64,000 nucleotides of DNA from Candidatus Nomurabacteria bacterium (GTDB lineage: Bacteria; Patescibacteriota; Saccharimonadia; Saccharimonadales; JAGQNJ01). Location of the stretch: positions 84,258-148,257 of the forward strand of contig CP060231.1 of assembly GCA_023898625.1 (NCBI GenBank). Direction: 5' to 3'. Of this stretch, positions 2,759 through 61,015 are shown piece by piece. The position numbers and the translations under genes are program-made. The notes below the pieces were generated by a model that was not told where the DNA came from, made no database searches, and saw only the letters and a list, made by a program, of their open reading frames with translations. How positions within the stretch are numbered: the stretch's first letter is position 1; each line of letters starts with the position of its first letter.

Positions 2759-3991
2759 CTATTTAGTAATACTAAGTGCCTCGATTAACACAACCAACGC
2801 TATCACTATTATAGAAATTATCAATATATTCATTGGTGTTAGTGATATAAATAACAGGCTTAACCCAGCTAAAATTGCCAGAATAATTTCAATAAATCTC
2901 TTACTAGAACCCATCCATAATGCAAACTTTGGCTTTTTATCGTGATATATTGCCTGCTGAATATCTCCATTTAGAGCGGTTGAAATACTAGTCCTGGTAC
3001 GAGTTGCAAGTTTACCCTTGCCTGTGAACCAAGCTACTCCAGAAACAAAGCTGAATACAAAAGCTAAAGCATAAGTTTGTTGTACTAACGATCTAAACAC
3101 GATATCCCATATTGCCATGACAGCTGACTGATAATTTGGGTCAGTGCCATTAACCAAAGCCGTCCGGGCAATTCTAAGAGCCAGTAGTGAGGCAACCATT
3201 AGAAGTGCGTACAAGATATCTACTCTTATGATAGTTTTGCGTTTATTTTTTGAAATTTGTATCGCCAAAATAGTCAATAACACAAACATAGCTATCGATA
3301 GCAGTCGTATCCACCACAGATTTACGACCAACCAATGAGCTTTAGGAAGATTTGGAGCTGAAATTAGCTGAATTGACCCGATCTTGTCAGGAAGGTTTAC
3401 GTTACCCAAAAAAGCTAGCTTACTGCCTTGCAAATTTTGAGTTATGCGATCAAATAAATCATTTACGTCAAAAGTTCCATCCCCTTGATAGTTTTTTACG
3501 AAATTCAGTAATCTTTGATGCGCTTGAGCATTAACGGTTTGCCAGGTATCCATAAACTTATCACTAGAGACAATTTTTTCTATTTGCTGATTAGTAAAAG
3601 ATTCGGCCTGTGAGGCAAAAGATGGTGCTAAAAATTGTGCTTTAGGTGGCAAGATATCTTGAGCAATCTTTTCCACATCAATATTATCAAAAATTGCAGA
3701 AGTAGCTTTATCGGCAATTGCAGTCTGTACGTCTTTATTTTGGATGATTGGCTGAGTGGCCTGAACATATCTGTTTGTATCTGTAAGTGTTCGACCTGTC
3801 CAAAATACTAAATTGCCAACCACTAACATCGCACCAGCTAATCCGATAGCCAGAACTATTCCTACTTTTTTGAATACTGATAATTTTTGATTTGTTGGAG
3901 ATGTCTGAACTTTGGCTAGACGTGCTTTTAGCTCTTTATTCTCCTTCTGGAGTTTTGTAATAGTTTGCGAATCTTGGGTACTAGATTTCAT
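2759..3991 (-). CDS. Hypothetical integral membrane protein
   Basis: 410 aa. N-terminal coiled-coil, a TM anchor, a ~170-aa extracytoplasmic region, then about 4-5 C-terminal TM helices. No recognisable catalytic motif. Confidence 0.5.
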   Translation of the reverse strand: MKSSTQDSQTITKLQKENKELKARLAKVQTSPTNQKLSVFKKVGIVLAIGLAGAMLVVGNLVFWTGRTLTDTNRYVQATQPIIQNKDVQTAIADKATSAIFDNIDVEKIAQDILPPKAQFLAPSFASQAESFTNQQIEKIVSSDKFMDTWQTVNAQAHQRLLNFVKNYQGDGTFDVNDLFDRITQNLQGSKLAFLGNVNLPDKIGSIQLISAPNLPKAHWLVVNLWWIRLLSIAMFVLLTILAIQISKNKRKTIIRVDILYALLMVASLLALRIARTALVNGTDPNYQSAVMAIWDIVFRSLVQQTYALAFVFSFVSGVAWFTGKGKLATRTRTSISTALNGDIQQAIYHDKKPKFALWMGSSKRFIEIILAILAGLSLLFISLTPMNILIISIIVIALVVLIEALSITK

Positions 3992-4057: not shown

Positions 4058-5110
4058 CTACTTGGCTAAGGCATCAGGAGGTAATGTTTTGAGTATTTCC
4101 TCGCCCTCTGGTGGTTTAAGAGGTTTTTTGCCCGTGATTTCGTATCTTTCATTAGTAACGGGTGATTCTACATAATCATCATTCAATAGATTTACGAACA
4201 CATTAAGATCCTTGCTGTCCATAATGATGATAGCGCCGGAATTGTCAACCATTAATGGCAAGTCAAGCTCTTCTGCTTGTTGCACTAACTTCTCTTGAGT
4301 TACTTTTGTTGGATCAAGTTTTTGAAGTTTATTCACTAAATTCTTCTTCCCTTTTACCATTTGCTCTATGGTCTGATCTGTGTCAATACTTAGCTTAAAA
4401 TGCTCAGCTATCAACTTCAGCTTTTGCTCTGCAATGGTGTATTTTTTTGCATCATACCCAAACAAGCTCGCCAACTTAGACTGATTGAATACATAGATAT
4501 CGCTCTCTAGAACTAATAATTGATTATCAGCAGGTATTCGTAAAGCTCCCTCGGCATCAAATGGCACAAATTTTCCTCCACGCAACATCCAACCAGCACT
4601 ACCTTTCATGATTTGTGACTGAGGTAAGGCTTTAATGATATAAAAAGGCGTTGGTAACTCCTTATGTGAGCACCTAGCCACTACACCCTTTACTCGCTTA
4701 AAGTCGTGCTCTTCCTCGACAAATGGTTCAATTTCATGTTCTTGGGTTTTTAACCAATTTAATACCATGTGAGCATTTTCGACTTTGTTTAGGCGAGTAC
4801 GTTGTAGGACATTTTTTTCTTCTTCTGCATCTTCAAAATTACGCACCACCAAGCCACTATCAGCGCCATCTAGTACAGCCTCTAATAAGTTGTCGATAAG
4901 TATGGCTTCTAGATTTCTGTGCAAAGACTTGCTAACCTGGGCACGGTAAACAACATAATTCTTACTGAAAAGAAAAAGTTCAATTGTCAGTTCTTCTTTT
5001 ATTTGAACCAAATTATTAGCCCAAGCAAAGACATCTGTTTCTTCACCACCAGCTTTTGTTTCTTTTTCTTTATTTGATTTCAGACTTTGTTGTGTGTCAG
5101 TATCTTCCAA
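4058..5110 (-). CDS. DUF4868 / KwaB-like protein (Kiwa anti-phage component family), tentative
   Basis: 350 aa. The central ...LLVLESDIYVFNQSKLASLFGY... and C-terminal ...VFVNLLNDDYVESPVTNERYE... resemble, from memory, the KwaB/DUF4868 blocks (DFYIKN..., ...LMSDDYLQSDLT..Y). No HMM was run. Confidence 0.4.
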   Translation of the reverse strand: MEDTDTQQSLKSNKEKETKAGGEETDVFAWANNLVQIKEELTIELFLFSKNYVVYRAQVSKSLHRNLEAILIDNLLEAVLDGADSGLVVRNFEDAEEEKNVLQRTRLNKVENAHMVLNWLKTQEHEIEPFVEEEHDFKRVKGVVARCSHKELPTPFYIIKALPQSQIMKGSAGWMLRGGKFVPFDAEGALRIPADNQLLVLESDIYVFNQSKLASLFGYDAKKYTIAEQKLKLIAEHFKLSIDTDQTIEQMVKGKKNLVNKLQKLDPTKVTQEKLVQQAEELDLPLMVDNSGAIIIMDSKDLNVFVNLLNDDYVESPVTNERYEITGKKPLKPPEGEEILKTLPPDALAK

Positions 5111-33871: not shown

Positions 33872-35122
33872 TTAAATAGTTTTGCGTTGTAATATAGCCA
33901 GGGTTTCAATGTGTGGAGTTCGCGGGAAAAAGTTATAGCCTTCAAAAAAACTAATATCATATTTTTCTTTAAGTAATGTAATGTCTCTGGCTTGAGTAGA
34001 TGGGTTACAACTCAGATAAACGATTTGTTTTGGTGGGTTCTCGAGTATTCTTTTTACTATTAACCCATGCAAACCTGCTCTGGGTGGATCAACTATTAAT
34101 ATGGTTTTAGGTTCTATATATTCCAGTGCTTTTTCAGATGAAGTATTTATAACTCTAGCGTTCGTATTTTTAGTATTCAGTTTAGCCATTGAGGTGGCGG
34201 TTTCGTTAATCTCGATGATTGTTGGCGCATTGGCGACACTGATGCCAATACTTCCTACGCCCCCGTACATGTCTACAACTTGACCATCAATAATATACTC
34301 TTTAATAGTACTTAGAACTTCATTAAAAATAGGTAGGTTAACCTGGAAAAATGAATCACAATTGTATACAAAATCTTTACCTAATAGCGTGTCCGAAACC
34401 ATGTCATCACCCAGACTATATAATAATTTTGTCATGACAGATGCTGGGCTTTTTGGATTAGAATACCAGACATTCAATCCACCAATGCCATCAGGTAAAT
34501 TCAAAGTTGGAAAATCTTCTGTCTTTACAAACAAACTAGAGGCTACTTTACCCGATTGGCTAGCTCGTACAATTACCGTTTTCAAACTTCCAGCACGTAT
34601 ATCACAACCGTTAAGCTCACTTAGGATCGCCTTTGCGCCATTGTTCACAGCAGGAAGAGCTAATTTTGAACCATTCACAATTTCTTTGCCATGACTTCCG
34701 CGACGATGAAGTGCCAAGTGTAGCCCAGCGTCATCTCCCCAAAATGAAAACTCCATTTTATTTCTATATTCAAACATGTGTTCTTTAAATATAAATTTGA
34801 AGTCAGGTAAGTTAATATGTTCTCTACCAAAAATCTCACTAATTATTTCATTCTTGTGTTTATTTTCGGCGTCGTACTGCATTATTTGCCACGGAGAAGT
34901 TGACAAGTAATTTTCTTCACTTGGCAGAATACGTTCTGTGCTAGCTTCTACTATATTTTCTGCAACAGCTTCAACATAATCTTTCCTCTTTTTTATAATT
35001 CGTATATCTACTTGCTCTCCAGGAAGCACACCCCAAACAAAAGCCTTCTTGCCCGAGCTAAGCTCTGTAAGGCCTTGACCACCAAAGACTAGCTTCTGTA
35101 TTCTCACTCTTTCGCTATTCAT
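33872..35122 (-). CDS. RNA (uracil-5-)-methyltransferase, TrmA/RumA (RlmD-like) family
   Basis: 416 aa. N-terminal TRAM-like region, SAM motif VDMYGGVGSIG, DPPRAGL, and the catalytic region YLSCNPSTQARD. Confidence 0.85.
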   Translation of the reverse strand: MNSERVRIQKLVFGGQGLTELSSGKKAFVWGVLPGEQVDIRIIKKRKDYVEAVAENIVEASTERILPSEENYLSTSPWQIMQYDAENKHKNEIISEIFGREHINLPDFKFIFKEHMFEYRNKMEFSFWGDDAGLHLALHRRGSHGKEIVNGSKLALPAVNNGAKAILSELNGCDIRAGSLKTVIVRASQSGKVASSLFVKTEDFPTLNLPDGIGGLNVWYSNPKSPASVMTKLLYSLGDDMVSDTLLGKDFVYNCDSFFQVNLPIFNEVLSTIKEYIIDGQVVDMYGGVGSIGISVANAPTIIEINETATSMAKLNTKNTNARVINTSSEKALEYIEPKTILIVDPPRAGLHGLIVKRILENPPKQIVYLSCNPSTQARDITLLKEKYDISFFEGYNFFPRTPHIETLAILQRKTI

Positions 35123-35729
35123 TAATAAACTTGATTATATCTGTTACTTCTTCTGCAAAGTAATCAGGATTATAGCTAGACAATATTTGCTTGCCATTAT
35201 AACCCCAAGCAACACTAATTATGGGCATGTTTATTTTTCTTGCGGCCTCTATGTCTCGAACTTCATCGCCTATGTATATCGAGTCCTCTACTGCAAAACC
35301 TTCCCTTTTCATCACTTTTTTCAATGCTTGAGCTTTACTAAATAAACCAACATTTCCATATACACCACCAAAATATTGTTTTAGGTGGTAGTTAGTTAGA
35401 AATTTATTAATAATACCGACACTATTTGAGCTAACTACGTACATTTTATGTCCATTACTAGCCAATTCTTTTATAACATTTTCCAAGCCTGGAAATATCT
35501 TTACTTCATTCATCCGTTTTTGTAATAACGGCCTACCCTTAACCAAGATGCCTGGGACTTTATACAACGGAACCCCAATCTCTTTTAGAACCTGTTTTGC
35601 TGTCATATTCCGAAAACTTTCAATTTGGTTTTGGCTTGCCTCGTATTTCAATAAGTCACCAGCAATACTAACCACAACCGGCAAACTATTTGCTAGAGTA
35701 CCGTCAAAATCAAAAATTACTTTCTTCAT
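35115..35729 (-). CDS. HAD-superfamily hydrolase (phosphoglycolate phosphatase-like)
   Basis: 204 aa. Motif I FDFDGTL, motif II VVSSN, motif IV GDEVRD. Confidence 0.8.
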   Translation of the reverse strand: MKKVIFDFDGTLANSLPVVVSIAGDLLKYEASQNQIESFRNMTAKQVLKEIGVPLYKVPGILVKGRPLLQKRMNEVKIFPGLENVIKELASNGHKMYVVSSNSVGIINKFLTNYHLKQYFGGVYGNVGLFSKAQALKKVMKREGFAVEDSIYIGDEVRDIEAARKINMPIISVAWGYNGKQILSSYNPDYFAEEVTDIIKFINE

Positions 35730-35791
35730 ACTCCTATTGTACAGAGGTCACAGCAGAACGCCAATAAAATATACTACGATAAATTTTAAAG

Positions 35792-36601
35792 TTATCTTAT
35801 TCCAAAGAATGTAATCCAAACAACTGCCATTACTAGCACAATACTTAGCTTCTGGTTGATTTTCTCTATATAGCTATAATCTGCCCATTTTCCCTTACTG
35901 CTCATACAGTAAGTTCTTAGACTTAATTGTTGCATATATGTTAATAATAATGCTATCAGAGCGGTCAGATAGGCATACCATTCTAAACCACCGCCGCCGA
36001 TTACTGCTGAATTCCAAATATAGTATGCAAAAACCACCCAAACTACCGTCAAGGCCGAACTGCCTAAGATGAATGATAAACGACTCGATGATTGATCGGT
36101 GCTTTTCAACCGTTCTGCTAAATACCCAGTTACGGATAGCGTGCTTATTAGTGCCATTATCATCACTATACTGCCTAGGTCAAAAACCCCCAATAGCATA
36201 CACAGAATAATCATAACCAGGGTCGTACTAACTCCTATGTTAACCCACTTATATTTAGACAACTTACTTGTAATTGAGTTAAGATATTTTGCTTGTAGAA
36301 AATTACCGATCACCAAATAATAAACCGCCATAAATATAAGAAGCAAGGATAATATGTACAAGATATTTACATTAAAGACGGTACGCGTCGCAGATGTCAT
36401 CACCACCTTACCTGAGTTGCTGAGCAAAGGATCCTTAGTTAGAAAGCTTGCAGTTACTGGAAGATAATCAGATTTTCCAAAAAACAATAAGATACCGGTT
36501 TGTACAACAAAAAACAAACTCAATAGTAAATAGCCTTTTTGAGGTTTATCTTGCTTTGATGATGATTTTGGTCTGGATGTTTTTTTAAATTTACCTTTCA
36601 T
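35792..36601 (-). CDS. Heliorhodopsin-family-like 7-TM protein lacking the retinal Schiff-base lysine
   Basis: 269 aa with a basic N-terminus and 7 predicted TMs. It aligns by eye, without gaps in TM7, to heliorhodopsin 48C12 as I remember it. KYKWVNIGVSTT matches FRWVEYSLSSS; GKWADYSYIEKINQKLSIVLVMAVVWITFFG matches GKWSNYLRGERAYIVLSLVAKSALAWQIFSG. The Lys position is Val and the counterion Glu position is Asn. Confidence 0.5.
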   Translation of the reverse strand: MKGKFKKTSRPKSSSKQDKPQKGYLLLSLFFVVQTGILLFFGKSDYLPVTASFLTKDPLLSNSGKVVMTSATRTVFNVNILYILSLLLIFMAVYYLVIGNFLQAKYLNSITSKLSKYKWVNIGVSTTLVMIILCMLLGVFDLGSIVMIMALISTLSVTGYLAERLKSTDQSSSRLSFILGSSALTVVWVVFAYYIWNSAVIGGGGLEWYAYLTALIALLLTYMQQLSLRTYCMSSKGKWADYSYIEKINQKLSIVLVMAVVWITFFGIR

Positions 36602-36609
36602 ATTAACTC

Positions 36610-36864
36610 CTATTTATTTACTGACCCCAAATCTGACTGATGATCTGCAGATGAATGGTTTCCTGAAAAATCTTTTTTACTAAAGTAAAAAATATAAAAT
36701 AACGGTAAAATCCCGGCAGTATTCAACAACAAGAGCAAAACAAACCAAACTTTAGAATTCTTACGAGCAGCAATCCAAAGAGCAATTGCCTTTAAAACAT
36801 AGTCTGTCAAAACAATAATTAACAAAAGCCAAACGTTATCGTTGATAAACTGCTCGTTAAACAT
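36610..36864 (-). CDS. Small two-TM membrane protein
   Basis: 84 aa. Two hydrophobic helices (WLLLIIVLTDYVLKAIALWIAA; WFVLLLLLNTAGILPLFYIFYF). Confidence 0.45.
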   Translation of the reverse strand: MFNEQFINDNVWLLLIIVLTDYVLKAIALWIAARKNSKVWFVLLLLLNTAGILPLFYIFYFSKKDFSGNHSSADHQSDLGSVNK

Positions 36865-36907
36865 ATTATCTGTATTGTATCACGTAGGACATCTATTAGT
36901 TGCTTTT

Positions 36908-38434
36908 TTATGCCCCAAGATCAAGATCAGAGTAGATGCCAGCAGTAACCTCATCTACCTCACTACGAAGTTGAGGGAAAGGCACACCTTCACGTGCTGT
37001 CACACCCTCTAGTAGCCAAAATAGCCGTTCTGCATGACCATACCCACAGGCTGGAGGCATGCCATATTCTAGCATTTCAATAAAATCAATATCCATCATC
37101 ATAGCTTCACTGTCGCCAGCATCCCGCATCCTTTGCTGTTCGATAAATCTACTTAGCTGATCTACTGGGTCGTTCAGCTCGCTGTATGCCTTAGAAGCTT
37201 CTGTGCCACCGAGCAGTAAGTTAAACTGTTCTGTTAAACGTGGATCTTTTGATTGTAGTTTTGCTAACGGTTGCAAATAATCTGGCACATCAACCAAAAA
37301 AGCCGGCCCACTAATATTCACACGAATTTTCTTCCACAACTTATCAATAACCCTTGAACGATTATCAATTTTTTCAACCTCTCCACCAATCTTCTTTAGC
37401 TGCTCGACAGCCTGTTCAAGTGTACACTCAAATACATCCAATCCATAGTTGTCTTTGATCAGATCAACAAAACTTAGCCTTGGCCAATCTTCACCATCTT
37501 CACCCAAGTTAATCTCTTGACCATTTGCTAGCTTAAAGCTTCTTGTTCCCCATGTTTTGTCCGCAACATAGCGTACAAGTTGTTGAGTAAAGCTCATTCC
37601 ATCTTGCCAATCAGCGTATGCCCAATACCATTCCATTGCTACATGCTCTGGAAGGTGTTCGTCAGAATAGTTCTCATTCCTAAAGCGAGGACCAATATCA
37701 TATACTTTTTCAAAACCTGCACCCAGCAACCTCTTGAGTGGAAGTTCGTGACTTATCCTAAGATAAAAATCTTGATCTAGTGCATCCATATGGGTAACAA
37801 ACGGATTGGCGTCAGCCCCACCTGTTGTATGCTCAAGCACAGGAACATTTATTTCTATAAAGCCATTTTGGTTTAAGAAATCCCTGGTCGATTGCCAAAA
37901 CTTGCTCCGCCTAATAAAGCGCTCTTTTACATCTAGATTTACATTCATGTCAATGTAACGACGACGCAATCTCTCTTCCTTATTAGTAAAGCCATCTTGA
38001 GTGGTAGGCATCGGGCGTAGCGATTTCGTAAGCAGTCGTAATTCTTTGACCTCAACTGATATCTCACCAGTTTGGGTTTTTATAACCCGTCCAGATACTT
38101 CAATAAAGTCTCCAGGATCAAGCAAATTAATGTGTTCAAATCCAATGTTTTGATGCTCAACACTAAGCACTTCCATAACATCATGTTTTAAGAACAACTG
38201 TATTTGGGCAGTAGTATCGCGTAATACAAAAAAAGCTATTTTTCCAAATTTGCGAGTGCTGATTATCCGCCCACTAACTATTACATTCTTGCTTTCAAAT
38301 TCAGAAAATTTATCTATTATCTCTGATATGGTGTTTGTTCTGCCTGATTTTGCAGGATACGGTTGAAGATTTAATTTCTTTATATCAGATAGTTTACGTA
38401 GTCGTTCGTTCCGTAGTTCTTTTAGATTTGCCAT
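36908..38434 (-). CDS. lysS: Lysine--tRNA ligase (class II)
   Basis: 508 aa. OB anticodon-binding domain and class II motifs (RFRNE, GYGHAERL...). Confidence 0.95.
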   Translation of the reverse strand: MANLKELRNERLRKLSDIKKLNLQPYPAKSGRTNTISEIIDKFSEFESKNVIVSGRIISTRKFGKIAFFVLRDTTAQIQLFLKHDVMEVLSVEHQNIGFEHINLLDPGDFIEVSGRVIKTQTGEISVEVKELRLLTKSLRPMPTTQDGFTNKEERLRRRYIDMNVNLDVKERFIRRSKFWQSTRDFLNQNGFIEINVPVLEHTTGGADANPFVTHMDALDQDFYLRISHELPLKRLLGAGFEKVYDIGPRFRNENYSDEHLPEHVAMEWYWAYADWQDGMSFTQQLVRYVADKTWGTRSFKLANGQEINLGEDGEDWPRLSFVDLIKDNYGLDVFECTLEQAVEQLKKIGGEVEKIDNRSRVIDKLWKKIRVNISGPAFLVDVPDYLQPLAKLQSKDPRLTEQFNLLLGGTEASKAYSELNDPVDQLSRFIEQQRMRDAGDSEAMMMDIDFIEMLEYGMPPACGYGHAERLFWLLEGVTAREGVPFPQLRSEVDEVTAGIYSDLDLGA

Positions 38435-38446
38435 TTCTCTATTATA

Positions 38447-38716
38447 TCAACTTTCTTTAGTTTCACGCCAAACAGCAATTCCACGGACGCAAGTCTCTGT
38501 ATCACCAAGTATACGGGAGCCAATAATGTCACTATCCTCTAGTCTATGTATTGCTTCTCTCCAGAAGATGCTTGGCAAACCAGCAGTACGACCAACTATT
38601 GTAAGTACCGGATACCTACCTTGCTCGATTAATCTGTTATTTTCTGTGGTTGCGCCATCTATTGATAGCGACAATACTTCATCACATCTTTCAATAAATT
38701 GTGCTCTATCCATCAT
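38447..38716 (-). CDS. Hypothetical protein
   Basis: 89 aa ORF in the operon orientation. No recognisable motif. Confidence 0.35.
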   Translation of the reverse strand: MMDRAQFIERCDEVLSLSIDGATTENNRLIEQGRYPVLTIVGRTAGLPSIFWREAIHRLEDSDIIGSRILGDTETCVRGIAVWRETKES

Positions 38717-38900
38717 ATTTCCTTATTAGCAATCTCTGCGTCTTCATTCATTAATCGTAAGCATTAGGGAGATTTTAAAATAATACTTATAAGTCCTAAA
38801 CCCTTACAACCAAAGCTTAAACTTTTAATTACTGATTAATCGTATCTAAGATACATTTATCAGATATTTATTTTACAATAAATATTGTAGTTAGTCAAAG

Positions 38901-39362
38901 TTACTTTATGTCGGTTACTTTATAGGTTGTTATATCGTTTGGGGTTTGGATCTCTACCTCTTCTCCCACTTTTTTCCCAATCAAAGCTTTACCTATCGGA
39001 GACTCATCAGATATTTTGCCATTTAAGGGATCTGCCTCAACTGTACCAACTATCTGGAATTCTCTTTTTTTGCCATCTTCACTCTTAAGGGTGACGCTCG
39101 ATCCAAGCTGAACCTTACTGTCGCCTTTAGGCTTAGATATAATTTTTACATTTTGTAAAATATTCTCGAGTTCAGCAATGCGTCCTTCTGCCTGTTCTTG
39201 CTCCGATCTAGCTGATGCATATTCCGCATTTTCCGCCAAATCACCAAACTCTCTAGCAGTCTTAATACGCTCTGCCACTAGGCTACGTTCACTAATTAGC
39301 GTATCCAATTCTGCCTGTAATTCTGCAATACCTTCTTTGGTTAAATGAAACTGTTTTTTCAT
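38901..39362 (-). CDS. greA: Transcription elongation factor GreA
   Basis: 153 aa. Coiled-coil with the GDLAENAEYASAR acidic tip, plus a C-terminal FKBP-like domain. Confidence 0.93.
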   Translation of the reverse strand: MKKQFHLTKEGIAELQAELDTLISERSLVAERIKTAREFGDLAENAEYASARSEQEQAEGRIAELENILQNVKIISKPKGDSKVQLGSSVTLKSEDGKKREFQIVGTVEADPLNGKISDESPIGKALIGKKVGEEVEIQTPNDITTYKVTDIK

Positions 39363-39439
39363 AATATCCTCACTCTTCGTTTAATTATTAATAAGCTCTA
39401 GCCTGTTAGCTATTGGTGAGTCGCTGTATTATATCAACC

Positions 39440-40693
39440 TTATGCAATAGAATCTAGCACTTTGTTGATGTCTTTTTCTGAAATAATTTCTGCGTCTTCA
39501 CTTGTTCGCTGTTTGTACTCAATTACCTCATTAGCTAAAGTTTTTTCGCTAATAACAAATCTGTGTGGAACTCCTATCAAGTCTGCATCCGCGAACTTCT
39601 CTCCTGGGCGAATGTCTCGATCATCATATAGAACTTCAACTCCCATTTCTTGTAGTTGGCTATATAAACTATCTGCTCGCTTGACAACGTCAGGATGATT
39701 CCCAAGCCTACAAATTATCGCTCTGAATGGCGCAATATTATCCGGCCAAACTAATCCTCTGTCGTCAGACAATTTTTCAACTATCACACCCATAACCCTA
39801 GTGACGCCAATGCCATAGGATGCTAGATATAATGGCTTTTGATGACCGTCTTCATCCGTGAACATAACCTCCATTTGCTGTGATTTATCAACTCCAAAGT
39901 TAAAGATATTTCCAACTTCGGCACTTTTTGTTTTTTCTAACTCGCTTTTATCGATCCCTAGCTCTTTTACAGCATCATCAAGCACTTCCTCATTAACAGC
40001 AATATTCTTGGCACGATGGACATACAATACATCCTCGCCAGCGTCACATATTGTTTGAAATTCATGACTAAACTTCGTGAAAGCTCCTCCGCTTGCAAAA
40101 GTAACAAAGGTCGTATCACCAATACCTAGCCTACTAAAGATTCTCTCGTAAGCATCAGTAACTTTTTGGTAATATTTATCTAAATCGTCACCTGATGAAT
40201 GTACTGAGTACATATCCTTCATCAAAAACTCTCGCCCTCGCATTATTCCACTCTTTGCGCGAAGCTCATTGCGTAATTTAGTTTGGAATTGATAAACACT
40301 AACTGGCAAATCTTTATAGCTCTTAACATGTTGTTGCAACATCTTAAGAATTGGCTCTTCGTGCGACCAAGCAAGCCCAACCTCAGTCTGATCCTTAAGC
40401 TCTGTCTTAAACCAAACATCCACAACTTCATCATCCCATCGAGTAGTTGCTTCCCAAGTATCCTGGGGTTGAAGATTGGTCATTATTAACTCTTGTCCAT
40501 CAATCTTGTCCATCTCTTCACGAATTATTTGCTTGATATTTTCAAGAACTCTCAGGCCAAGTGGTAAATAAGCATACACTCCAGCCATTTCTTTGTGTAC
40601 ATAGCCCGCTCGTATTAATAGTTGGGCATTCTTTGCAGTTTCATCAGCTGGAGCGTTTTTTCGAGTCTTGGTAAATAGTTGGGAATATTTCAT
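39440..40693 (-). CDS. proS: Proline--tRNA ligase (short form without INS editing domain)
   Basis: 417 aa. The N-terminus reads MKYSQLFTKTRKNAPADETAKNAQLLIRAGYV, followed by class II motifs and a C-terminal anticodon-binding domain. Confidence 0.93.
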   Translation of the reverse strand: MKYSQLFTKTRKNAPADETAKNAQLLIRAGYVHKEMAGVYAYLPLGLRVLENIKQIIREEMDKIDGQELIMTNLQPQDTWEATTRWDDEVVDVWFKTELKDQTEVGLAWSHEEPILKMLQQHVKSYKDLPVSVYQFQTKLRNELRAKSGIMRGREFLMKDMYSVHSSGDDLDKYYQKVTDAYERIFSRLGIGDTTFVTFASGGAFTKFSHEFQTICDAGEDVLYVHRAKNIAVNEEVLDDAVKELGIDKSELEKTKSAEVGNIFNFGVDKSQQMEVMFTDEDGHQKPLYLASYGIGVTRVMGVIVEKLSDDRGLVWPDNIAPFRAIICRLGNHPDVVKRADSLYSQLQEMGVEVLYDDRDIRPGEKFADADLIGVPHRFVISEKTLANEVIEYKQRTSEDAEIISEKDINKVLDSIA

Positions 40694-59296: not shown

Positions 59297-61015
59297 TTAC
59301 AAGAGACAGCGAACCCCAATACCGAAAGCCCGATCGACGACGTGGCCAGGAAGAACGAAGCCAGAAAAGAAGACCGCGAGGAAAGCGTTATCCGCAGTAT
59401 CCGGGAAAGCCGAACTTGACCACAGGCCGCCGCCGCCGCCCTGGTCGCCGAAGCCCCCATTCCAGAGGCCAGCAAATTGTCCTTTAAATGGGCCGTTAGG
59501 TTGCCAGTTTTGGTAATGTTCCCCGTAATTGCTTAAGTAGGTGGGGTCTTGGCCATTTGGGAAACCTGCCATTTTAGCGCTTAGTTCGTTGAATTCGTTG
59601 GTTGAGAGGGGTATGCCTGTGTTAGTATCTATTCCACCGATTGGTAGTCTCCAGTTTTTAGGGCAGATGGAGTGTGGGGCATTGCCGGCATTCTCATCGT
59701 GGGAGGTCCTGGATTCTCCTGCGGTTACAGCTGGCCAATTGTAGAGGTTGCCGTAGTCATCTGAGTTAGTTACTTCGGCGGTAGAAATACCGGGTCCATC
59801 GTTTTGGACTAAGTTAGATGTGTCTATAGTGATGTTCCAGCTGTTATCTAGGGTTGACCAGGTAAATGCAGTGGTACCGTTGCCATCAAGTTGGCTAGAA
59901 CGGCTGGTGGTTACGGTTTGGCCTACGGCTGTAGTTAGGGCTGTAGCTACTGTATCGCCGTCAACATCATACGGAAATGGGCCAACGGTGGTAGAGATTG
60001 GAGTGGATATATTTAGGCTCCAGGTGCCACTGGTTGAATGTTCCCAGCCACTTGTGACTCTGAGTGCGGTTGGTATGTTGTAGGCTTCTGGGGTGTCGAA
60101 GCTAGCGTGTGATGAGTCAGAGCCAGAGTAGAGTTGTGGCAGGGTGAAGTTACTAGTTATGTCTGTGTCTTGGGGTGTAAGTAGAGTTGTACCTGAATTT
60201 GAACCTAGTTTTAGGTTGTTGAGCATCCAACAGTTGTTGTCGGCTAGTTTGGCTACTTGGTAGGTTTGGTTGTCTCCCCTAGCGTCTGTTAGGGTTAGGA
60301 TAGCTTCGTTGTTAGAGCCATCATAGATTGTCATGTTATCTTGGCAATAGGATGATGTTAGCTCTTGCATGGTGGTTGGAGCTGGTGGAATTATTGATGG
60401 GTTGTCGGTAGCATTATAGGTTAGTTGTAATTGTTTGGTGCCAGCTGTTACTGTGTCGTCTATGGTGAAGTATAGGGTGGCTTCTGTTGTGTCATTACTG
60501 GTTGCTGAACTGGTGGTTTTTAGAGTTAGCGGAGTGGCGTTTGGAACTAGGGTGGTATTGGTGGCTATTTCTCCGCCTTTTATGCCAATAGCTATGCCTG
60601 GTTCAGTTGATTGGAGTTGGGCGGTTAGGGTGTACCCACTTGAGTTGACTGTGCCGGTGGTTAGGTTTGTGGTGGAGTTTACCGATCCGCCACCATTAGG
60701 GATAGTTACATTAATGTTGTTTTGGCCGGTGCCAAGAGTTAGGGTTGGGGTGGCTTGGGCAAAGTGAGAGTTAATAGTTAGGCCAACTACGGCTAATGAA
60801 AGAGCCAAGAAAACACCTAAACTACGAGTTTTTAGTTTATAACGAGAGCCTAAACGGCGAGAAGTTAAGTACCAAGTAAGTAAGCTTAGGGTAATTAAAA
60901 TAATGGCAATGATTGGTAGTAGTTTGATTTGCGAGCCAGTATTAGCTAAGTTTCCGTTAGCTGGGGTATTGCCTACTACTATATTAAGAGTTTGAGTTAT
61001 GGTTTGATTTTGCAT
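59297..61015 (-). CDS. DGR target protein: secreted Thr/Asn-rich beta-rich region + C-terminal FISUMP-like (Fibrobacter succinogenes major paralogous domain) C-type-lectin-fold domain carrying the VR
   Basis: 572 aa. Internal Sec signal-like segment KLKTRSLGVFLALSLAVVGLTINSHFAQA. FISUMP-like landmarks are CWMLNNLKLGS, LYNWPAV, CPKNWRLP, GLWSSSA and GIGVRC. The last ~58 codons are the VR. Confidence 0.85.
   Translation of the reverse strand: MQNQTITQTLNIVVGNTPANGNLANTGSQIKLLPIIAIILITLSLLTWYLTSRRLGSRYKLKTRSLGVFLALSLAVVGLTINSHFAQATPTLTLGTGQNNINVTIPNGGGSVNSTTNLTTGTVNSSGYTLTAQLQSTEPGIAIGIKGGEIATNTTLVPNATPLTLKTTSSATSNDTTEATLYFTIDDTVTAGTKQLQLTYNATDNPSIIPPAPTTMQELTSSYCQDNMTIYDGSNNEAILTLTDARGDNQTYQVAKLADNNCWMLNNLKLGSNSGTTLLTPQDTDITSNFTLPQLYSGSDSSHASFDTPEAYNIPTALRVTSGWEHSTSGTWSLNISTPISTTVGPFPYDVDGDTVATALTTAVGQTVTTSRSSQLDGNGTTAFTWSTLDNSWNITIDTSNLVQNDGPGISTAEVTNSDDYGNLYNWPAVTAGESRTSHDENAGNAPHSICPKNWRLPIGGIDTNTGIPLSTNEFNELSAKMAGFPNGQDPTYLSNYGEHYQNWQPNGPFKGQFAGLWNGGFGDQGGGGGLWSSSAFPDTADNAFLAVFFSGFVLPGHVVDRAFGIGVRCLL
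59301..59476 (-). repeat. DGR variable repeat (VR) at the 3' end of the target gene
   Basis: The counterpart of TR. 18 codons differ, mostly TR Asn/Asp/Glu codons changed to L, V, F, G, H or D. Confidence 0.92.

Follow-up and report, generated by a model that had tools for sequence, protein, structure and literature searches.

The 64,000-nucleotide stretch analysed here (positions 84,258 to 148,257 of contig CP060231.1, assembly GCA_023898625.1; the whole of it is called the window below) carries on its minus strand a gene of 269 codons, the product of which belongs to the heliorhodopsin family but has valine in the place of the lysine that forms the Schiff base with retinal. According to the data obtained, we estimate the probability that this window protein is a chromophore-free (“blind”) ortholog of heliorhodopsins with a light-independent role in the membrane at approximately 70%. 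Since Val257 and Asn121 replace the Schiff-base lysine and its counterion, respectively, the sequence would not permit a protonated retinal Schiff base to be formed, and the protein should not be a photoreceptor. Retinal synthesis is lacking in Saccharibacteria, in which the nearest loci were found.

Membership of the window protein in the heliorhodopsin family is confirmed by profile, by sequence and by predicted fold. The Pfam model Heliorhodopsin (PF18761) matched it with E=2e-27 and 96.5 bits at a gathering score of 26.7, the match spanning residues 26-267 of 269 and profile positions 7-240 of 242. All solved heliorhodopsins were matched by sequence in a phmmer search against the PDB, among them TaHeR (6is6, E=1.9e-16) and 48C12 (6su3, E=6e-12), with the best heliorhodopsin entry at about 1.4e-16. 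The score with the NCBIfam equivalog model NF038020 HeR (93.9 bits) fell under its cut-off of 100, and for this reason the protein, which is identical to USN95657.1 (and to relative P0157 in our set), bears the name “hypothetical protein” at NCBI. Exactly the same sequence is present on 31 contigs, the longest of which has 876 kb. An AlphaFold2 (AF2) model built from a 43-sequence alignment reached a predicted local distance difference test score (pLDDT) of 92.9 and a predicted TM-score (pTM) of 0.87, and contains seven helices together with a long beta-hairpin (AB hairpin, strands 46-56 and 68-79) between transmembrane helices 1 and 2 (TM1 and TM2). Compared by Foldseek with TaHeR 6is6, this model gave TM-scores of 0.83/0.89 and a root-mean-square deviation of 1.9 Å, and a TM-score of 0.80 was obtained with the structure of 48C12; the best matches among type-1 rhodopsins had TMq of only 0.5-0.6 and E about 2e-3. 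Thus, both the profile search and the superposition (TM-scores of 0.80-0.89 for the two heliorhodopsins) uphold the family assignment proposed by a preceding sequence-only reading of this DNA. That reading also marked the same 269-codon open reading frame (ORF), verified here by its translation and lying on the minus strand, which was not stated there, and described seven helices and a basic N-terminus turned to the cytoplasm. In agreement with it, 13 lysines and arginines fall into predicted cytoplasmic segments and 5 outside them, with 8 in the N-terminal 19 residues, which by the positive-inside rule is consistent with the inverted, N-in topology.

Correspondence of residues was taken from the phmmer alignment and two MAFFT alignments of about 157 sequences, and all of them agree in the positions of Val257 and Asn121. 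Residues 18-251 of 48C12 were rebuilt from the alignment, and 39 of the 39 residue numbers given by Kovalev et al. 2020 (PMC7049168) coincided with the numbering so obtained. The TM7 motif SxxxK reads SIVLV in the window protein, with Val257 in the column of Lys241; valine also occupies this column in the two close orthologs from loci L001 (codon GTG) and L002 (GTA). The nearest relatives that contain the lysine have aspartate at the counterion position (below, D/K relatives). A misalignment or a shifted lysine was considered and rejected, as no lysine of the window protein is found within four residues on either side of the Lys241 column. Only two lysines, K118 and K251, lie just inside the helix ends. 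In place of K251 the 83%-identical ortholog has Arg, and the D/K relatives have Leu or Val. K247 corresponds to Arg231, a conserved boundary residue in 48C12. Both substitutions, Lys to Val and Glu to Asn, had been named in the sequence-only reading on the basis of four blocks of 48C12 (YLPVTASFL/ALPMTGTYL, KWVNIGVSTT/RWVEYSLSSS, LLGVFDLGSIV/ICGIADIVALL and gap-free TM7), all of which are reproduced in the computed alignment. It had also allowed for a lysine at the start of TM7 entering the retinal pocket; its candidates, K244 and K248, were misnumbered (actually K247 and K251), and the computed alignment leaves Val257 in the Schiff-base column.

The other functional positions are changed only in part. 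In the numbering of 48C12 the substitutions are K241V, E107N, H23F, H80Y, Y108I, F206T, S76M, N101S, R104K, Q213L and Q216C, and the retained residues are W105, Y92, E149, W173, Y226, E230, S237, S111, Q26, P40, W246 and the D127/Y179 dimer contact. In the window protein itself this means that W119 and W188, the AB hairpin, the dimer contact Asp141/Tyr194 and the Tyr/Glu/Lys core of the cytoplasmic polar cluster (Y106, K118, E163, Y242 and E246) are kept. Over 21 pocket-lining positions, F206T and Y108I included, the net change in side-chain volume relative to 48C12 is -33 Å3, which, being a mere sum of side-chain volumes, is a crude proxy of the pocket volume. Pocket positions match the family consensus in 20% of cases in the clade of the window protein, in 37% on average in lysine-less relatives and in 47% in lysine-containing ones; for 11 positions of the cytoplasmic cluster these values are 45%, 75% and 80%, respectively.

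The gene is clearly under purifying selection. Pairwise ratios of nonsynonymous to synonymous substitution rates (dN/dS) among the close orthologs are 0.098, 0.169 and 0.088 at dS up to 0.96. Asn121 and Val257 are preserved without insertions or deletions (indels) in the ortholog of L002 (93% identity), in that of L001 (P0002, 83%) and in 12 further members of the cluster; more than 14 variants, which come from many samples, have the 269-codon frame intact. A pseudogene was therefore rejected, both because dN/dS is as low as 0.09-0.17 and on the ground of the intact alleles. At the same time no other gene of the locus evolves as fast: its divergence is 1.9-3.1 times the median of its neighbours within the clade of the window protein, versus ratios of 0.6-1.2 in pairs of canonical heliorhodopsins. 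In the two D/K relatives, P0008 (locus L010) and P0009 (L009), which have the lysine, evolution is already about 2.5-fold faster than in the adjacent genes, and Arg104 (replaced by Tyr or His), His23 and Phe206 have been lost. The canonical features apparently started to decay while the lysine was still present.

A scan of a collection with one genome per GTDB species, for which a 4-sequence alignment served as the query (the 43-sequence one was too diverse), returned eight loci, and 8/8 belong to metagenome-assembled genomes (MAGs) of Candidatus Saccharibacteria. In the closest of them, L002, the neighbouring genes are 94-99% identical to those of the window, and the heliorhodopsin ortholog is 93% identical. 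The order ProRS-GreA-x-LysRS-DUF5652-HeR-HAD-U5 methyltransferase-PD(D/E)XK-SerRS-RaiA, where HeR is the heliorhodopsin gene, is the same in six loci (window, L001, L002, L013, L010 and L009), and in the window and in L010 RaiA is followed by SecA. The stretch HeR-HAD-(U5 methyltransferase)-PD(D/E)XK-SerRS(-RaiA) is shared with the Saccharibacteria loci L003-L008, which encode canonical heliorhodopsins with the Glu/Lys pair. Because the chromosomal slot and the downstream genes are those of the canonical loci, the window gene corresponds by position to the canonical heliorhodopsin genes of Saccharibacteria and is their ortholog rather than a paralog or a side branch. Thus, from the description of the protein as a lysine-less offshoot of the heliorhodopsin fold, given by the sequence-only reading, the absence of lysine and the family fold stand, while its place on a side branch does not. 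No second rhodopsin was found within the 64-kb window. The source MAG is labelled Candidatus Nomurabacteria in NCBI; by contrast, each of the eight GTDB loci, like the close members of the cluster, belongs to Candidatus Saccharibacteria or Saccharimonadales. This label is probably a taxonomic misassignment.

Based on these data one can assume that the gene originated from a canonical Glu/Lys heliorhodopsin of the same chromosomal slot through an Asp/Lys stage that would survive in the two nearest relatives, P0008 (44% identity) and P0009 (34%), both with lysine and the aspartate counterion; we infer the path Glu/Lys to Asp/Lys to Asn/Val. After the loss of lysine the gene would have remained under purifying selection, and that selection argues for a function independent of light. 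Most probably the protein is a membrane scaffold or regulator, presumably dimeric, that binds its partner through the cytoplasmic face. Such binding would be constitutive rather than switched by light, and would represent the light-independent half of the role reported for heliorhodopsins, since the protein has retained its fold and hairpin as well as the dimer contact and the Tyr/Glu/Lys cytoplasmic core. Titles in the reference list of PMC10308929 present heliorhodopsins as regulators of glutamine synthetase and photolyase. By analogy, regulation of a partner by the window protein can be suggested, with chances somewhat below even; its dimerisation may be expected from the preserved contact. 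The HAD phosphatase and the DUF5652 protein encoded on either side are partner candidates only.

Loss of the lysine, the extent of which had been raised as a question by the sequence-only reading, reaches beyond the clade of the window protein. An exhaustive HMMER search of 1.84 billion cluster representatives gave 572 relatives, and 91 of the 152 full-length top matches lack the lysine. This share of 60% is biased, as the query itself is lysine-less and clustering at 50% over-counts fast-evolving lineages. Instead of lysine these sequences have V, Q, T, A, L, I, S, N, M, Y or H. In the set of 93 lysine-less sequences, composed of the 91 representatives, the query and its two orthologs, no shifted lysine was found nearby in 92. 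All five lysine-less representatives with enough flanking DNA (P0010, P0011, P0013, P0017 and P0021) occupy the same Saccharibacteria-type slot. On a neighbour-joining tree lysine-containing and lysine-less sequences are interleaved, with a Fitch parsimony minimum of 42 changes, a count inflated by errors of this distance-based tree. Among 25 mutual-nearest-neighbour pairs three are mixed with respect to lysine, one of them with 94% bootstrap. It follows that the lysine was lost independently at least about four times and probably many more.

Relative to the lysine-containing set, entropy in the lysine-less set rises by 3.41 bits at K241, 1.36 at E107 and 1.24 at S237, with further increases at S76 (0.86), S111 (0.76) and H80 (0.68). 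E107, S237, S76 and S111 are the four residues to which Kovalev et al. 2020 (PMC7049168) attribute stabilisation of the Schiff base. Entropy is also higher at Y226 (+1.03) and at a few TM5 and loop positions (about +1.0); elsewhere both sets are about equally conserved (mean entropy 2.19 vs 2.32 over 233 columns), and W105, R104, Y92, E149, E230, D127 and W246 are 83-100% conserved in the lysine-less set. In lysine-less relatives, therefore, conservation relaxes mainly at the Schiff-base residues. Some relatives keep the lysine with a non-carboxylate residue at the counterion position (P0038, T/K; P0076, L/K; P0022, G/K; P0134, A/K; P0146, G/K), and others keep Glu without Lys (E/Q, E/I, E/S, E/T etc.). 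As both single-loss classes occur, lysine and counterion were lost in either order. It can be proposed, tentatively and with odds nearer to one in three than to one in two, that in the Saccharibacteria slot the lysine disappeared many times independently, each time leaving the gene intact and selected and relaxing the Schiff-base apparatus alone.

What heliorhodopsins do physiologically has not been settled since 2018, when they were discovered; sensing, enzyme regulation, support of DNA repair and carotenoid antennae have been proposed. The solved representatives, TaHeR (6is6/7u55) and 48C12 (6su3/6su4/6uh3), share with the window protein PF18761, the fold with the AB hairpin and the N-in charge pattern. 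They differ from it by an identity of only about 19-20% and by Lys241, Glu107, His23, His80, Tyr108, Phe206 and Arg104, all absent from the window protein. Heliorhodopsins are common in Saccharimonadia (Chiriac et al. 2022, PMC9166423). The canonical Glu/Lys ones of L003-L008 are 24-31% identical to the window protein, with neighbouring genes at 42-76%, and unlike it have both the motif SxxxK and a Glu counterion, their rate of evolution being close to that of the neighbouring genes. P0008 and P0009 have the full synteny, including DUF5652, the motifs KDPLLS, IWNSAVIGG and GKW.DY and the rapid evolution in common with the window gene, but retain the TM7 lysine, the Asp counterion and His80.

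Microbial rhodopsin homologues without the retinal-binding lysine have been designated Rh-noK (Yamauchi et al. 2019, as cited in PMC10730872, PMC10308929 and 10.1101/2025.04.29.651185). In PMC10730872, which refers to the same work, their share among microbial rhodopsins, “including” heliorhodopsins, is put at more than 10%. Like the window protein they have a full-length natural opsin fold and a residue other than lysine at the Schiff-base position. The characterised Rh-noK, as far as it is portrayed in the citing texts, is a type-1 protein related to xanthorhodopsins and encoded in tandem with a working proteorhodopsin, and restoration of its lysine brought back pigment and pumping. The window protein, in contrast, belongs to the heliorhodopsin family, is an ortholog rather than an extra paralog, and besides the lysine is without the counterion and a large part of the pocket. 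FArhodopsins and haloarchaeal opsins without a retinal site (Becker et al. 2016) resemble it in being retinal-free and conserved with the fold kept, but are of type 1; marine FArhodopsins, moreover, keep the lysine, have the pocket blocked by bulky residues, and are paralogs of proton pumps linked to a flotillin gene. In general, retinal-free type-1 members (Rh-noK, FArhodopsins, haloarchaeal opsin-like proteins) most often occur as paralogs of a functional pump. In large surveys the TM7 lysine serves as the criterion of the family, and sequences without it are discarded (PMC9601134, PMC13295031, PMC9166423); lysine-less relatives have for this reason been almost unstudied. Our full-text literature search found no paper describing or analysing lysine-less heliorhodopsins, and one that mentions them in passing. 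New here are the orthology to canonical forms, the evidence of purifying selection, lysine losses recurring at a single Saccharibacteria locus and the relaxation focused on the Schiff-base residues.

Several observations weigh against a blind heliorhodopsin with its light-independent half preserved. The clade of the window protein is more derived than typical lysine-less forms and has lost both cavity histidines; with only 45% of cluster positions matching the consensus, its cytoplasmic face may not act as it does in 48C12. The rate, two to three times that of the neighbours, is shared by the D/K relatives that contain lysine, so that a partial relaxation of constraint is possible. The conserved neighbours, in turn, belong to a long housekeeping string, and their adjacency may be plain synteny. 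The gene might also be a decaying, functionless remnant of a former heliorhodopsin, for which one could cite its being the fastest gene of the locus and the low consensus match at functional positions. We consider this scarcely credible, the least probable of all explanations: dN/dS at the given divergence, the intact frame without indels in all the variants, the exact sequence on 31 contigs, the good ribosome-binding site coupled to the upstream gene and the confidently predicted fold all speak otherwise, and in genomes of about 0.9 Mb dead genes are rarely kept. Nearly as improbable is a protein that is still a photoreceptor, with retinal held non-covalently or bound to a relocated lysine, for which K118 (in TM3) and K251 (where TM7 begins) would be the candidates. 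All three close orthologs have K118, which is one helical turn away from position 121, and the active-site lysine has been relocated by engineering in animal rhodopsin. K118 corresponds, however, to Arg104, a conserved member of the cytoplasmic cluster near Glu149, and the D/K relatives have Tyr or His there; K251 varies, as described above, even in the 83% ortholog. Besides, position 121 offers no carboxylate counterion, the cavity histidines are gone, and Saccharibacteria do not make retinal.

More serious, though still unlikely, is the possibility that the seven-helix cavity binds or passes some other hydrophobic molecule without a Schiff base, for instance host-derived retinoids, carotenoids, lipids or quinones. 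In that case the window protein would, with the same low likelihood, be of a ligand-binding, uptake or scramblase type, of use to an episymbiont scavenging membrane components. The pocket is indeed not filled by bulkier residues, as the negative volume balance with F206T and Y108I and the preserved W119 and W188 indicate, although the volume estimate is crude. A carotenoid-binding site with a fenestration was predicted in 91.3% of heliorhodopsins (2025 preprint 10.1101/2025.11.27.691015), TaHeR takes up external retinal rapidly via an opening (10.1101/2022.02.13.480300), and retinal-independent scramblase activity was reported for a proteorhodopsin (PMC10730872). Yet two heliorhodopsins had no scramblase activity in vitro, according to the statement in PMC10730872 that cites its ref. 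45, and a 20% match of the pocket to the consensus fits drift equally well as a new ligand. The blind ortholog with a light-independent role thus remains the preferred explanation. It means that a lysine-less protein can be a direct ortholog of canonical heliorhodopsins, selected in a genome of about 0.9 Mb, and one of many such cases in Saccharibacteria, which argue for a light-independent function of the heliorhodopsin fold. If the scenario of repeated independent losses proposed above is true, the primary job of heliorhodopsin in minimal genomes would be light-independent, with light as a dispensable modulator, and blind orthologs would give a comparative handle on its core function and partner. 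Comparison of blind and sighted forms may be regarded as a natural experiment pointing to the parts that carry this core function. The gene also reveals a gap in annotation, as a heliorhodopsin-family protein is named hypothetical at NCBI.

The heliorhodopsin-like gene lies inside a long co-directional run of housekeeping genes, and no terminator-like sites were found within 35000-39500. Its ribosome-binding site overlaps the TAG stop codon of the preceding DUF5652 gene, a layout typical of translational coupling. It is only in the divergent clade (window, L001, L002, L009, L010 and L013) that DUF5652 stands beside the heliorhodopsin gene, and loci with canonical or other lysine-less heliorhodopsins lack it; its product is a possible clade-specific partner. 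The HAD hydrolase gene is the most constant neighbour of canonical and lysine-less Saccharibacteria heliorhodopsin genes alike: it directly follows them in L003, L005, L007-L010, L014-L016 and L019 and is absent in L004, L006 and L020. Scans of the window with Rfam models and for tRNA genes found nothing. Positions of all the features are collected in the table.

Table. Features of the 64-kb window discussed in the text, with the evidence for each
Feature	Position	Strand	Evidence
Heliorhodopsin-family coding sequence without Schiff-base lysine, 269 amino acids (aa), ATG start	35792..36601	-	ORF and translation, PF18761, PDB matches, AF2/Foldseek
Codon GTA, Val257 at the Schiff-base lysine position (Lys241 of 48C12, Lys238 of TaHeR)	35831..35833	-	gap-free TM7 alignments
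Codon AAC, Asn121 at the position of counterion Glu107 (48C12)	36239..36241	-	computed alignments
Codon AAG, Lys118 at the position of Arg104 (48C12), cytoplasmic polar cluster	36248..36250	-	alignment
GGAG ribosome-binding site, 5 nt 5' of ATG, overlapping TAG stop of the DUF5652 gene	36607..36610	-	sequence read
DUF5652 small membrane protein, 84 aa, two-helix, directly upstream of the heliorhodopsin-like gene	36610..36864	-	Pfam PF18893, E=2.5e-20
HAD-family phosphatase (phosphoglycolate-phosphatase-like), directly downstream	35115..35729	-	Pfam HAD_2, E=2.7e-31; NCBIfam matches sub-cut-off
KwaB-like protein	4058-5110	-	Pfam PF16162, 1.9e-10; PADLOC KwaB, 5e-15
410-aa ORF adjoining the KwaB-like gene	2759-3991	-	no family match
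Reverse transcriptase, 377 aa	58042-59175	-	Pfam RVT_1; PADLOC generic RT, 1e-29, weaker DRT-type matches
572-aa ORF adjoining the reverse transcriptase	59297-61015	-	no Pfam or PADLOC match

Two other regions of the window may be related to defence. Sequence matches of the KwaB-like protein suggest a Kiwa-type defence gene; the adjoining ORF, which matched no family, is at most a putative KwaA partner. In the stretch at 56-60 kb, which contains the reverse transcriptase, the GC content is 0.435 versus about 0.39, and the otherwise constant negative GC skew is lost; this stretch may be an acquired defence island.

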